NCBI RefSeq assembly: GCF_003018255.1
Contig: NZ_CP027441.1
Reading direction: 5' to 3' (one strand)
Origin: Escherichia coli
GTDB taxonomy: Bacteria > Pseudomonadota > Gammaproteobacteria > Enterobacterales > Enterobacteriaceae
Length of the DNA: 64,000 nucleotides
The position numbers are program-made. This document shows, piece by piece, positions 15,101-24,100 of the stretch. How positions within the stretch are numbered: position 1 is the first letter of the stretch; the number at the start of each line of letters is the position of its first letter.

Positions 15101-18100
15101 TGTTGTCGATAATCCCTGTGCCATTCTCTGAGCCAGAATATATTGCGAAACAGCTTTACCAACATTTCCAAGAACCTGAGTTGTCAGTTCGATACCCGCT
15201 GCAGCTTTTGTTCCTGTATGTGCGTCACTGTTTCCCAGAATAAAACTTGCTGATACAGCAGAAAGAATTCCGGAGACAACATCCAGCCCATCCCCCAGGG
15301 GGCCCAGGTCTGGTAAATTTTGTAATTTTCCACCAACAGAACTTAAGCGAGGTTTACTGGATAAAAATGAGCCAAGCTGGTTAAGCTGCTCAGAAAATGA
15401 ATCAACGGTACTGTTTATACTTGATACTGTATCTACAAGCTGATTAATAAGTTCAATACTACTTTTGGCAATATCATTCTGACTTATATCCTCTCCTTCC
15501 CGTTGTTTTCTCAGCAATTCATCAAGAGCCATGCCTGATAAAGCAATCCCCGTAAAATTCTGTAGTGCTGAGAGAACTGTTCCGGCTTTTCCCAGATTAT
15601 TACCTACATTTTCAGCAGTTCCGCCTATTTTACTCCCAACTTTCTGATACTTCTGCAGAAGTTTGTCAAGTTGTGGTGCGAATATTGCAACACCACGTTC
15701 AGTTAATCCTACAACTTTTTCTGCTGTACCAAAAAACTGGTTTGCAATCGCTGTATCATCTCGTTCAGTACGGTGTATTTCTATTCCAAGCTCATCAGCA
15801 GCTTTGACCAACTCATTAATACCCACGCCCTGAGCTTCATAATTATCAGGTATTAATAATATGAGTTTTTTTCCAGCGGAACGTACGCTTGATGATGCTG
15901 TATTAAATGCTGATTTTGTAGTCGATGTCGCATTGTTGAAAATGTTCTTTATTTTATTTACTGTCATATTAGTTTTCTTTCTCAATATTAAAATTAAAAT
16001 CTTGTCTGTTTTTTACTTCAGACATAAGTTCATGATGGTATTGCCTGAATATTTTTGATGCCAGCTTTTTATCTATCCCCCCTCCATGAAATTCAGCTAT
16101 TTTCCCTGTTTTACTGTACTCATCTAACCTTATTGCTCTGAATAACTCATAAGGATACTTTTTCCTCATGTGTTTATATAACTCCATGTTGTGCCCAAAT
16201 GGAGCTATCCAGTCAATAAACCACTTTCTTTCTCCCGACACCCAGTCTTTTGCATACAAAGATGTTACATCATTTATATATTTCACCTCACATTCCAAAT
16301 CTAAACTGGCCCAACTACAAAAAGCTACAGGAAGCTCATCCTTTATTAAGAGAGCAAATTGATTTGTCTGAATAGCAGGTATGACATTAATAGCAAAAAC
16401 AGATAGCGGCCATTTTTTATGCAACGAAGAACAGGCCCATAGCCATGCAACCTTCCCCATGACGTCAAAAGCATTAGATTTCATAATGTTTAAACAAATA
16501 AGAAAATTCAGTAAATGTAAAGAACTCTATATAAAAGAACAGGAATTATATCCTTTTAAGCAAGAAGCATCTAAAAACAAAAAGCTACCGCAAGGAGAAT
16601 CCCTCCCAACCAAAACAACATTAGCGATAATAATATATTACCTAAACATTCTTACACATATCACAGCTAAGTTATATTATAACACTCAGATGATTGATTT
16701 GTAAGATAACGTATGATTTTCATATGAATAGCCACGCGACAAATGCCTTATTAAAGAGATTGTAAACAGAATACAGCAAACAATTTCAGTTACCGAAATG
16801 ACGAGTTAATCTGTTTTGTTTACCCTGCAAACACAAAAGCCAAACTTACACAGCAAAGCAAACCTCCCTTCTTAATAAAAAAGCCCCGGATATTCCGGGG
16901 CTACAAAAATATTAACGAACAATCTGTCCAGTTATTTCAACCCTACGGTTGGGGCGCAGACACTCCTTCAGTCCATCCCCCACCATACCAGGGCATAATG
17001 CTACTGGTGCATCAGCCCCCCGGCCTGTTGCTTGTATCCTTTCGGCCTTAAATCCTCGGCTTATAAACCATTCCTTGACAGACTCTGCACGTTTTTCTGA
17101 CAGTATACGATTATACTCCTTACTTCCAAGAGGATCCGTAAACCCCTCAATTCTTACATCATCAACCTGACTGAACTTTGTGGCAATTCGCTCCAGTTCA
17201 TCATTAGCTTTATCCGTCAACCGCCACGAGTCAAAGTTAAATAATACGTCCCCCGACAGAGTTTCTTTATGAGAGACAGAATCCTCTTTTACTGTGTTCT
17301 CACCAGGAGTAGCGCTTGATATACCTGACATACAATTTTCTGGCTTCCAGTAGAAAGAGCGGGCATCCATGTTCCGGTCAAACAGTATCTTGTACTGGCA
17401 GGTATAATCCCCCTCCGGTCCGGTAAAGTTGAACAGGTAATCCCATTCCCTTACACCAAACATCCCTTCAGCAAAGTGTGGTCTCCCCGCCAGCTGATAA
17501 ATCTGGTCCTTATTCATACCCGCCTTTATCTGACGTAACTTTTCTGGTAGTGGCCACGAACCTTTCTGTGTTCCGTCATGATTAAACATCACCTTCTCCG
17601 GAGAAGGCCATACCACTTCTTCCGTCGTTCCTTCATCCGTGACATGACTCAGATTTCCACATCCTGCAAGCATCAGGGACAGCACACCCGTCATCATCAT
17701 TCGACTAAATAACATTACATTTCTCCTTGCTTTTCCCTGTTACCACTGCCAGCCCACACCGGCACCGACGGAGAAATTACCCCGGGTGTTCTGACCTGCA
17801 TTCAGTTTCATTATCACCTTACCGTTATCGGAGATACGGGACACACCTATTGCAATGGCGCTTTCACCACCATATCCACCGACACCCAGCCCCATCAGAC
17901 TTTTACCCGGCAGATAGGCCTGAGGTATCCCGCTCATGGCCGCAGCCGATGCACCAACACCACGGATATCCCGGTTAAGCTCTTCCACCCGGTAGCTCAG
18001 CTGGCTGAATTTATTCCCGAGAGTGTTTATCGCCTGTGTATTTCCGGCAACCTGACGGTTAGTTGCATGCAACTGACTGCCATTGACGGCATCCGTTGAG

Positions 18101-21100: not shown

Positions 21101-24100
21101 CGTTCATTTCCATTCTTTCCAATGGAAAAAACACTTTGGGGATTTGAGGCTGCAAACCCAGTATAAATCCTATCATTAATTTTTGCCTCAGTTACTTCTG
21201 TAGCCAACTTATCAACTGAGCCAGAACCAATTGCTACACTCTTATCAAAATTTACAGTGGCATCTTGTCCCAGAGCTACCGCAGAGGGCTTATTTACGAT
21301 CGCCGAGTCACCTATAGCTACAGAATTGACAGAATTTATACCCTTAACATGGCTGTACGCCCCTAAAGCAATACTGTTTTCAGCCTCTGCTTTGCTATTA
21401 TATCCTATCGCATTTGACTGATTTCCTCCAGCAACGGCTGTAGCACCCAGCGCGTTAGCCCCCATACCAGTTGCTTTACTGACCGCACCAATTGCAAGAG
21501 ATAAAGTTTCTGTTGCTTTACTTTGAGGGCCGACAACGATACTGGCGTCTCCTGTAGCCTCTGATGCGTCATAATTATCAGGGATCAATACTCCCCCATA
21601 CGAACGTCCTTTTAATGGCGTAAGGTCATCACCACCAATAACAATTGCTCCCCATCCACTTGCTTTAGTATCACCACCTATCGCGATTGACTGTTCTTTA
21701 GTCGCTTGTGCTTTGGCGCCGATTGCAATAGATTCTCCTGTCTTAAACCCTTCTGGAGTTTGTATCTCACCACCTGCTATCGCACTTGTACCAATAGCAA
21801 TAGAATTACGCCCACTAGCAATTGGAGACGTATGTTTGAAATAAATACCCTTATCTGGATCTTCTGGAACTTCACTAGTAGTCCCTATTTCGATGCTCAG
21901 CCAGTCATTACCTGCTGTATCCACCGGAGCTTCATCAACCTCAATATGAGACGTATTCTTTTCTGCAAAGGTCATAGCAACCGGAGCTATTGCTAGCGCA
22001 ATAGAAACACAAAGGAGTGTTTTTTTATATTTCATCGTCAGTCTCAACAATTTAAGGTATGCAATACTCTTGGAGTTTCCTTATCAACCCCAAGCATTCT
22101 TATAAAATACTCTAATAGCATGACACATATAAAAACAAGCAAGCAAGTAAACATACAATGTATCCTTTGATGCTCGCCCCTATACAGATAAAATCATTCC
22201 ATTTTATAAAACATAGAAGACATGCCTTGCAAAAAAAATAACCTTAATGTAGCTGTTACTTATAAAACTCCCTTAAGCGACATATGTTTTGATGTATTTT
22301 GTTTAATCGATTCAAGCTCACTGTTAAGTATCCATTATTTATATTATAGTGTTCGCAAACGAACTTTCTTGAACATCCATCAACCAAATAGGCTCTCAAA
22401 GAATCAAATACCTTCTTACTACATATCGGTGATATATCCATCAATAATAAGAAATGTTCTTCATCTAAACAGCCTGGCGTTAACATACTTTCGTCAGGTG
22501 CTCTGGTGTTTTTTTTATCCAAATTAATGATTCTCTCCATGCATGCCTCCTTTTTTACTATCATAAATACAAAAACAACTTTATCTCAACTCTCTCTTTA
22601 CATACGAAAAAAAGTCAAACAATCCATACACAACAGCAATAACAACAGAAACAACCAAGAAAAACAAAAAAAGAAAAACAAAAAACCAATACGCGAAGCA
22701 AAACCAAAAAAACACTTTTAAAACAGAAATAAAAAAAATTAGATAAAAATCAAATGACGACAATATTATCTAAACTTGCAATTAAAAATGAAACCTGTTC
22801 TTTGCAAGTGTGATAGTATTATTCTTCTGCAAGCTGATAAATGACATGCTTAGTTATCCCTCCCATTAATTTCTATTAAATATTTAATAAACTTGAACTT
22901 TGATTTCTACCCTTGATTTTTTCAAAAAACAATCAGTCGAACTGACTGGAGAATAACTCTAAAGACTCCTTCCATCTGGCGGTGATTAAACAGAGACAAG
23001 CATCATTGTTCTTCCCCTGAAATAACAGACTCGCAGCTAAGTAATAGCTCTGTCAGTGTGAGTCACATTACACAATGAAGTTGCACACTGAATTTGGCCA
23101 CCTGAACAGAGGTGATATGCTCACCTCAGAACAACACCGGTGCTCCAATGAAAAAAAGAAATTTCAGCGCAGTGTTTAAACGCGAATCCGCTCAACAGGT
23201 TGTTGACCAGAACTACACGGTGGCAGATGCCGCCAAAGCTATGGATGTTAGCCTTTCCACAATGACAAGATGGGTTAAACAACTGCATGATGAGCGTCAG
23301 GGCAAAACACCAAAAACCCCTCCGGGTAACACCAGAACAAATCGAAATACGTGAGCTGAGGAACAAGCTATAACGCATTGAAATGGAGAATGAGATATTA
23401 AAAAGGCTACCGAGCTCTTGATGTCAGACACCCTGAACAGTTCTCGATAATCGGGAAACTCAGAGCGCATTATCCTGTGGTAACATTCTGCCATGTGTTC
23501 GGGGTTCATCGCAGCAGCTACAGATACTGGAAAAACCGTCCTGAAAAAACAGACGGCAGACGGGCTGTATTACGCAGTCAGGTACTTGAGCTACATGGCA
23601 TCAGCCACGGTTCGGCCGGAGCAAGAAGCATTGCCCGGAGAGGCTACCAGATGGGATGCTGGCTTGCTGGCAGACTCATGAAAGCGCTGGAAATGGCATG
23701 AAAAACCCATGGTAAGCCCAGCGAGGTGATGTTCCACAGCGATAGTAATAATGCCGGTATCAGTTTTTATCATCACTCTGTTTGCTGTTTAACCAGATTG
23801 GTGTGATTACTGATGCAGTGAAGACCTTCCCGCATCCTGACTCACACAGAGCTCGCCCCTTTGTGTCCTGCCCCGGACCTGTCGGTTGCCGGAAGCGCCT
23901 TCATGCGAGGCGTCTCCTCACCGATGCGCGTGACTCAAGAAGGGCCTGACGGCTTGTCTCGTTACTGTCCTGTCTGGGTTATCTGTCTGGAGATTCAACT
24001 CTGTTTCCTCACAGGAGCTCTGTTATGGCAGGTAAAGTTACGGAAACTGCTGTTGTGGGTAGCGTGGATACACATAAAGATCTGCACGTTGCCGCTGTCG

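Follow-up and report, generated by a model that had tools for sequence, protein, structure and literature searches.

A PapB-family regulator gene and a TpgA-like lipoprotein gene flank the trimeric autotransporter adhesin gene sab on an Escherichia coli plasmid

Introduction

The closest described counterpart of the locus analyzed here, the adhesin gene sab and its two neighbors on a 64,000-nt stretch of Escherichia coli contig NZ_CP027441.1 (assembly GCF_003018255.1; hereafter the window), is the ataA-tpgA operon, whose second product TpgA binds both the trimeric autotransporter AtaA and peptidoglycan; TpgA contacts AtaA through K64, D65, L80, and F81, AtaA contributes K3576 and D3601, and the substitutions K64A and F81A weaken binding (PMC12523085). 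The same study lists Escherichia among the genera of a TpgA-like cluster, 91% of which lies downstream of taa genes (PMC12523085), and a 2026 preprint counts 644 TpgA homologues that adjoin trimeric autotransporter adhesins. How such adhesins are regulated is little known, and a 2026 survey of trimeric-autotransporter neighbors (preprint) lists TpgA and SadB as the sole helpers and reports no dedicated regulator.

At the regulatory end of the locus, the closest described counterparts are PapB, FocB, and SfaB. The pap phase switch is built on Dam and Lrp, GATC sites, and the divergent papI gene, and cross-talk of PapB to fim (type 1 fimbriae) is established. Repression of papB by H-NS has also been reported in the literature. 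We find a PapB-family gene, sab, and a TpgA-like lipoprotein gene in a conserved order, and consider it on balance probable that the three constitute an adhesin module in which Sab is controlled by the regulator and tethered through its partner.

Results

The sab locus

The window is part of a Shiga-toxigenic E. coli (STEC) plasmid of the pO113 type: 6.5 kb of it are 100% identical to NZ_CP027372 and 99.9% identical to pO113 itself (NC_007365). A first-pass annotation had placed a PapB-like gene, sab, and a lipoprotein gene head-to-tail on one strand, with the lipoprotein gene starting just past sab and a terminator hairpin behind it, and this layout holds throughout: all three open reading frames (ORFs) lie on the minus strand (Table 1); 24 nt separate the sab stop from the lipoprotein ATG; and a stem at 16902..16882, 9 nt past the lipoprotein stop, folds at -18.8 kcal/mol (z -4.45, with 0 of 200 shuffles folding as well).

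The sab ORF opens at a TTG at 22050, upstream of the annotated ATG, and ends with the stop codon 17742..17740; the records examined annotate Sab at 99.8-100% identity. The protein has the Sec signal peptide (MKYKKTLLCVSIALAIAPVAMTFA), the YadA-type head and stalk repeats, and the C-terminal YadA-like anchor of a trimeric autotransporter, together with NCBIfam matches to EmaA/Ata/YadA, and Pfam YadA_head, stalk, and anchor domains are seen on allelic homologues. Neither usher nor chaperone genes are present in the module; the regulator gene heads a trimeric autotransporter and a lipoprotein, not a chaperone-usher fimbrial operon.

A PapB-family regulator linked to Sab-like adhesins

The regulator ORF 22564..22256 matches Pfam PapB (PF03333) with an E value of 2.4e-36 over model positions 6-91 of 91. 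A better start is the ATG at 22540, 5 nt past the Shine-Dalgarno (SD) sequence AAGGAGG at 22552..22546, and the corresponding 285-nt gene is annotated in 4 of the 6 RefSeq records examined. Compared with the sequence of the FocB structure 3m8j, the regulator scores an E value of 3.6e-16 and is ~45% identical over residues 17-93; in an alignment, SRKFVCE and NNGY occur in all adhesin-linked alleles. Residues R61 and C65 of PapB are reportedly DNA-binding.

Assignment of the upstream gene to the PapB family, as first proposed, is thus confirmed, and its linkage to the adhesin is kept through ~50% sequence divergence. A word-indexed search returned 15 close relatives and an exhaustive search ~150 clusters in the family, and genomic context was examined for relatives at 88, 86, 74, 81, 62, and 52% identity. 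All eight alleles of the regulator (100 to ~49% identity) stand directly upstream of a Sab-like adhesin gene and a BamE/OmpA lipoprotein gene, the relatives' adhesins measuring 1433-1453 aa; a 51%-identical PapB-like gene adjoins a more divergent lipoprotein. The DNA upstream of the modules varies, from insertion sequence (IS) elements to an IncFII replicon, a TonB receptor gene, a lactate-utilization operon, and a gene for a serine protease autotransporter of Enterobacteriaceae (SPATE), and two modules do not adjoin ehx. In a neighbor-joining tree the eight adhesin-linked regulators form one clade, with PapB (P0151) and FocB elsewhere. The next relatives, at 50-53% identity, are found beside ibrAB-like genes, beside an AraC gene and type IVb pilus operon, and beside an Afa remnant; such varied adhesin settings suggest that the family as a whole is of a general regulatory type, encoded by the gene that opens an adhesin locus, and that this clade is tied to trimeric autotransporters. 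No paper linking a PapB-type regulator to a trimeric autotransporter was found in the literature searched. Judged from these comparisons, the link between the PapB family and Sab-type adhesins looks real and conserved, and appears to be undescribed.

Some observations on the regulator's relatives stand apart from this argument. A PAPS-reductase/DUF3440 gene and a 212-aa gene occur in L016/L017 (2528..4380, minus strand) and, downstream of the PapB-like gene, in L024/L025; the pair thus flanks PapB-like genes in two arrangements, and resembles ibrAB. The ibrAB genes encode activators of Eib trimeric autotransporters. In loci L008-L010 a second PapB-like gene survives as a frame-shifted remnant, located ~1.3 kb upstream of the intact one. 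Two giant repetitive proteins, P0136 (2646 aa) and P0137 (3747 aa), match regulator residues 16-40 repeatedly, probably as a compositional or repeat artifact.

DNA upstream of the regulator gene

In the region ahead of the regulator, where GC content is 30-32%, all eight alleles, down to ~49% protein identity, have in common a box with the consensus GTTTAGATAAT(A/T)TT.T.GT..TTTGAT and, after it, a T-rich tract. The box precedes the ATG of the regulator gene by 234-237 nt, or by 250 nt in L016; the tract measures 162-165 nt, or 178 nt in one allele, its length being constant and its sequence poorly conserved. A TTGAGA-18-TATGAT-type element, with the same 18-nt spacing, stands just before the SD in 5 of the 8. 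The obvious guess is that box and tract would serve as an upstream activating or anti-silencing site. The terminator-like hairpin still further upstream may act as an insulator between the module and the IS remnants, which lie beyond it and start ~550 nt upstream of the regulator gene.

The analogy with fimbrial phase switching that the first-pass annotation had drawn is not supported, as the locus has no pap cis-elements. The interval 21900..23200 is free of GATC, and nothing PapI-like appears among the ORFs listed for the window, so the pap Dam/Lrp phase switch is absent. Nor could other signals be sustained in this region: i) phased T-tracts, or a 9-bp periodicity of the PapB type, were rejected by a power spectrum of the T tract in 8 alleles at 9-11 bp (z <= 1.4 versus shuffles); ii) a small hydrophobic leader ORF in the T tract (22763..22581) was rejected, having no conserved frame or start and translating alike only in the box, and the tract is open in all frames because it is A-poor; iii) the search for further box copies gave a single one with 2 mismatches, 5′ of ehxC (16648..16632, minus strand), within chance expectation; and iv) an Rfam search of 16000..23500 gave nothing near a gathering score.

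One transcript or several

The distance from regulator stop to adhesin start is -4, 12, 13, 15, and 28 nt in five alleles, normal signal peptides following, and gaps this short practically force co-transcription in those five. Spacers are longer in the Sab lineage: 220 nt in the window (where the spacer is AT-rich), 217 nt in L003, and 193 nt in L007. A consensus scan of the minus strand found no terminator-like site in the 220-nt spacer, nor was a terminator seen between regulator and adhesin genes in any allele; a structured RNA or terminator there was likewise discarded for want of significance (fold z -1.66, 12 of 200 shuffles folding as well). The spacer does contain a conserved sigma-70-like element (Table 1), which suggests that sab may also have its own promoter, and for the Sab lineage we would expect, from the sequences, both read-through from the regulator promoter and initiation at the internal one. 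The 24-nt junction between sab and the lipoprotein gene contains the SD AAGGAG (17728..17723, 7 nt before the ATG) and neither hairpin nor T-run (fold z -0.26).

The lipoprotein

The lipoprotein has a lipobox (LAGC, Cys19), a Pfam BamE domain at residues 54-115 (E 2.8e-15), and a Pfam OmpA domain at residues 158-239 (E 6e-17). Its top NCBIfam match is the TpgA equivalog NF047726 (E 1.1e-42, 146 bits), collinear over residues 4-262 of 267. Among sequences of the Protein Data Bank (PDB), the N-domain matches TpgA-N (9vnj_B) with an E value of 2.2e-13 and all BamE entries with 4.5e-3 or worse; identity to the TpgA N-domain is ~37% (26 of 70 aligned residues). In HMMER alignments TpgA K64/D65/L80/F81 correspond to K69/D70/M85/F86, kept or conservatively replaced. 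The peptidoglycan-binding motif TD..G....N..LS..R, represented here by T193, D194, G197, N202, L205, S206, and R209, is invariant in an alignment of 28 sequences. An AlphaFold model has a mean predicted local distance difference test (pLDDT) score of 77, exceeding 85 in the C-domain, and orders the N-domain as alpha-alpha-beta-beta-beta; the model C-domain superimposes on the Salmonella OmpA C-domain with a TM-score of 0.88 and a root-mean-square deviation of 1.4 Å, and all of the top 50 Foldseek matches of the full-length model are to the OmpA-like C-domain.

The suggestion that this protein is a partner of the TpgA type is backed by its domain architecture, best family match, contact residues, position 24 nt behind sab, and conserved synteny. 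We regard assignment to that already described kind as well supported at the level of sequence comparison; most likely, the lipoprotein would tie the Sab membrane anchor to the cell wall. As a separate observation, L022/L023 carry at 1..2219 (minus strand) a shorter anchor-bearing ORF (~630-650 aa, no Pfam match recorded) followed by a second BamE/OmpA lipoprotein gene, an extra pair sharing the contig with a full module.

The Sab anchor

The C-terminal anchor of Sab matches Hia (E 1.6e-23) and AtaA-TM (E 1.3e-6); the equivalents of AtaA K3576/D3601 are K1378/D1403, and the AtaA W/I contact pair reads V/M. The D lies within an (S/T)D(N/S)(G/S/N) loop, SDNG in Sab, in 26 of 26 distinct anchors having a downstream lipoprotein; Saa, YadA, and one further unpartnered anchor have a shorter, E-containing loop, and D is also present in 4 other anchors scored as unpartnered, Hia among them. 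As far as such alignments go, the pattern repeats the argument of the TpgA paper on independent data. The window itself contains a second trimeric-autotransporter anchor ORF, probably saa, which has no BamE/OmpA or PapB-like neighbor; its anchor loop reads RTSEN--TVV, without the SDNG loop.

Allelic variation and distribution

Regulator identity to the window ranges from 62 to 88% across alleles, falling to ~50% in the ehx-free modules, and the first 500-900 adhesin residues, depending on the allele, are 48-98% identical per 100-residue bin; identity is 98-100% for the last ~500 adhesin residues, the lipoprotein, and EhxC. The adhesin of the closest allele (L003/L004) differs only in its first 100 residues. 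Inside sab, GC content shifts from ~0.42 to ~0.53 near 19500, which fits a recombination joint. Among seven plasmids whose identity over 6.5 kb is at least 99.9%, indels number only 3, all of a single base, in non-coding T runs around the regulator gene (Table 1); these may reflect slippage or, equally, homopolymer errors of long-read assemblies. It is very doubtful, in our estimation, that regulator, box, T tract, and adhesin N-terminal region together make up a swappable hypervariable cassette that recombination grafts onto an invariant backbone of anchor, partner, and hemolysin, with slippage in runs of T6-T9 tuning or switching expression; if true, a trimeric autotransporter would here be subject to a scheme of phase and antigenic variation whose driver is a dedicated regulator of the PapB clade.

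Of 5426 complete E. coli genomes, 86 carry the conserved 3′ part of the module, 56 of them with a coverage of at least 80%, and it occupies 72 places on plasmids and 24 on chromosomes; this puts the module in about 1-1.6% of the complete genomes. For most of the allelic adhesins the annotation goes no further than "YadA-like family protein".

Next after the terminator comes ehxCABD, with a promoter-like site of its own (CTTACA-18-TATAAT with a TG extension, 16676..16705, minus strand) and an ops-like GCGGTAGC at 16584..16591 (minus strand), both 5′ of ehxC.

Table 1. Coordinates of the sab module, its putative control elements, and related features of the window
Feature	Coordinates	Strand	Basis or remark
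Terminator-like hairpin, possible 5′ boundary or insulator	22930..22948	minus	Consensus scan; conserved in L003 and L007 of the Sab lineage
Conserved upstream box GTTTAGATAATATTGTCGTCATTTGAT	22749..22775	minus	8 of 8 alleles
T-rich tract	22590..22748	minus	58-67% T on the sense strand in the alleles compared
T8/T7 run in T tract	22731..22738	minus	1-nt difference among near-identical plasmids
T7/T6 run in T tract	22607..22613	minus	1-nt difference among near-identical plasmids
Sigma-70-like promoter candidate TTGAGA-18-TATGAT for the regulator gene	22560..22589	minus	Best scan match, 10/12
PapB-family regulator gene	22540..22256	minus	94 aa + stop; Pfam PapB; FocB 3m8j
T8 run just past regulator stop	22231..22238	minus	Two near-identical plasmids have T9
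Candidate internal sab promoter GTGTCA-16-TATAAG	22126..22099	minus	Read by eye; below scan threshold
sab, trimeric autotransporter adhesin gene	22035..17740	minus	1431 aa + stop; annotated Sab
TpgA-like lipoprotein gene (predicted outer-membrane product)	17715..16912	minus	267 aa + stop; Pfam BamE + OmpA
Intrinsic terminator closing the unit	16902..16876	minus	9-bp stem, 7 GC, + T-run
Second trimeric-autotransporter anchor ORF, probably saa	42372..43880	plus	~500 aa

Discussion

From the order, spacing, family assignment, and conservation of the three genes we infer the following scheme of transcription, regulation, and docking. Transcription would start at the sigma-70-like promoter just upstream of the PapB-family gene; the 94-aa regulator, presumed to have the FocB/PapB fold, would bind the AT-rich upstream region (box and T tract) and activate or de-repress its own promoter, thereby controlling transcription that reads on into sab. 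Regulator and adhesin would share a transcript in most alleles, those with the -4 to 28 nt gap, and in the Sab lineage the terminator-free spacer of 193-220 nt would add a second, weaker promoter, so that sab would be made from both. Co-transcription of sab and the lipoprotein gene, predicted from the 24-nt gap and the lack of a terminator in it, would end at the hairpin. The lipoprotein, lipidated at Cys19, would be sorted to the outer membrane because it has Gly at +2; its BamE-like N-domain would dock on the trimeric barrel of Sab, at its periplasmic face, as TpgA-N does on AtaA, via K69/D70 and M85/F86 opposite Sab K1378/D1403; and its OmpA-like C-domain would bind peptidoglycan. The resulting tether of adhesin, partner, and cell wall may aid surface display and resist pulling forces.

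A number of observations weigh against this scheme, and they are best considered together with the explanations that they favor. The lipoprotein could instead be a general envelope tether of the PlpD/Plp4 or YiaD kind, which binds peptidoglycan and merely travels with the adhesin gene. When one genome per species was scanned for relatives, and the best 80 loci were searched with an anchor profile built from Sab, Hia, AtaA, and YadA, a trimeric-autotransporter anchor ORF ended just upstream of the lipoprotein gene in 22, and 57 had no anchor ORF in the fetched flank (2 of these 57 with almost no upstream sequence); the latter are mostly Pasteurellaceae loci, their proteins named PlpD or Plp4, and have housekeeping neighborhoods, as in Actinobacillus, where the A. 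pleuropneumoniae gene lies between recJ and a HAD hydrolase gene. The family holds, in short, both stand-alone and adhesin-linked members, and the most similar lipoproteins outside E. coli (44-50% identity) are mostly stand-alone. Moreover, the match to NF047726 misses the curated cut-off of 350 bits, which makes the lipoprotein a homologue of TpgA and not an ortholog-level match; K69/D70 are conserved family-wide, and discriminate weakly because stand-alone relatives keep them too; and Hia, whose anchor is the one most like that of Sab, carries the D as well, and is placed among the adhesins outside the taa-tpgA cassette (PMC12523085). Yet a trimeric adhesin gene ends 20-24 nt before every E. 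coli copy examined, on plasmid or chromosome, the gap being 24 nt where the copy is linked to ehx, and all linked loci but one have 14-107 nt between the adhesin stop and the start of the lipoprotein gene. A neighbor-joining tree of N-domains, built without bootstrap, places adhesin-linked Alcaligenaceae and Dyella copies as the sister group of the E. coli clade, and the stand-alone proteins in a crown group of their own. The residue at the TpgA-F81 position is F, W, or A in 11, 2, and 2 linked proteins, and Y, F, or V in 40, 14, and 1 stand-alone ones; it is F in the Sab-linked protein, in which the C-terminal extension that typifies the stand-alone kind is missing as well. On the strength of synteny, the N-domain tree, F86, and the missing extension we group the Sab-linked lipoprotein with the linked kind; all partnered anchors, besides, have the D-containing loop. 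A mere general tether therefore seems quite unlikely to us, and a TpgA-type partner remains the preferred reading.

For the regulator, the alternative is that sab is expressed mainly from its own spacer promoter, the PapB-like protein acting chiefly in trans on other surface structures, such as type 1 fimbriae or further adhesin operons, in the manner of PapB, or being a dispensable relic; the three genes would then not make up a single regulated unit. The spacer element has equivalents in L003 (GTGTCA-17-TATAAT) and L007 (TTATCA-17-GATAAA), and promoter-like matches in the region scanned are not enriched (19 versus 14.5 expected from shuffles). Adhesin-lipoprotein pairs also exist without the regulator: a PapB-like gene is absent at a 1145-aa adhesin and lipoprotein on another contig (a plasmid), and the pairs on E. 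coli chromosomes (L114/L115), beside ireA and a type I secretion system with a giant GA-like protein, have neither PapB-like gene, nor box, nor T tract, and differ at the adhesin 5′ end. Such pairs imply that the regulator is an addition rather than a core component, and outside E. coli none of the fetched loci had a PapB-like gene beside an adhesin-lipoprotein pair, many adhesin ORFs there exceeding the 7-kb flank. Close regulator relatives, as noted, adjoin ibrAB-like genes, an AraC gene and type IVb pilus operon, or an Afa remnant. The literature searched held no expression or binding data on either flanking gene, and in the passage of a review that deals with Herold 2009, Sab gives adherence and biofilm formation to laboratory strain JM109, from a clone with or without the flanking genes (PMC6024878). 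Set against all this, the adhesin-linked regulators are monophyletic and remain immediately upstream of the adhesin through ~50% divergence; a gap of -4 to 28 nt leaves no room for a separate promoter in five alleles; and no allele seen has a terminator between the two genes. We accordingly think it rather unlikely that sab escapes its regulator in this way. That the adjacency is a chance outcome of IS-mediated plasmid mosaicism, without functional meaning, would be in keeping with the IS remnants upstream and the mosaic nature of the plasmids, but we hold it to be extremely improbable: the same order recurs in at least 5 different upstream contexts and on ehx-free plasmids, cis-features upstream of the regulator are conserved, and a three-gene order shared by 8 regulator alleles and several plasmid backbones is not expected by chance. 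The scheme we favor thus remains that of a regulator-controlled, partner-tethered Sab.

Should it hold, a PapB-clade regulator heading Sab-type operons would offer a handle on when STEC negative for the enterocyte effacement locus (LEE) display a biofilm and adherence factor, and would tie the expression of autotransporters into the network through which fimbrial regulators cross-talk. A TpgA-like partner would carry the model of an adhesin-cell-wall tether beyond Acinetobacter, to an E. coli plasmid of clinical relevance, and studies expressing sab alone may underestimate Sab function.

Comparison with known systems

The lipoprotein gene resembles tpgA of Acinetobacter sp. Tol 5/A. baumannii (9VNJ; PMC12523085, PMC6363060) in i) its place directly downstream of a trimeric adhesin gene; ii) the BamE-like N-domain and OmpA_C-like C-domain of its product, and a length of 267 aa versus a 268-position model; and iii) retention of the K/D and hydrophobic/aromatic contacts, with matching K/D in Sab. 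It differs in that the lipobox of the Sab-linked protein is unmistakable, TpgA being described as a periplasmic protein, and that the Sab module is plasmid-borne and has an upstream PapB-family regulator added; complex formation and peptidoglycan binding are predictions here. The PlpD/Plp4 proteins of Pasteurellaceae are closest by overall identity and share the lipobox CGNLS and both domains, but they are not encoded beside adhesin genes, and most of them carry a GPAPLY extension at the C terminus and have Y where TpgA has F81. SadB of the Salmonella SadB-SadA pair is likewise a small lipoprotein of an adhesin operon that improves display of a trimeric autotransporter; by description, however, it is a trimeric lipoprotein of the inner membrane that interacts transiently, and no BamE or OmpA domain has been reported for it.

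With PapB, FocB, and SfaB the regulator shares its Pfam family, the motifs SRKxxCE and NNGY, its position as first gene of an adhesin operon, and an AT-rich upstream region; pilin, chaperone, and usher genes follow there, and a trimeric autotransporter with its partner here, where a divergent papI-like gene and GATC/Lrp switch sites are both missing and the regulators form a separate clade. In the enterotoxigenic E. coli (ETEC) locus L111 a PapB-family gene, ~50% identical, lies upstream of an AraC gene and type IVb pilus operon, so that there too the family has been recruited to an adhesin other than chaperone-usher fimbriae; L111 differs in its adhesin machinery and in having an AraC-type co-regulator, which is absent at sab. 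LngR is a further PapB-like protein. A passage of PMC6681793, citing De La Cruz 2017, concerns LngR/LngS of Longus. The sab locus as a whole is a variant of a known adhesin-partner cassette, in which the type of partner has already been described and the link to the regulator appears not to have been.

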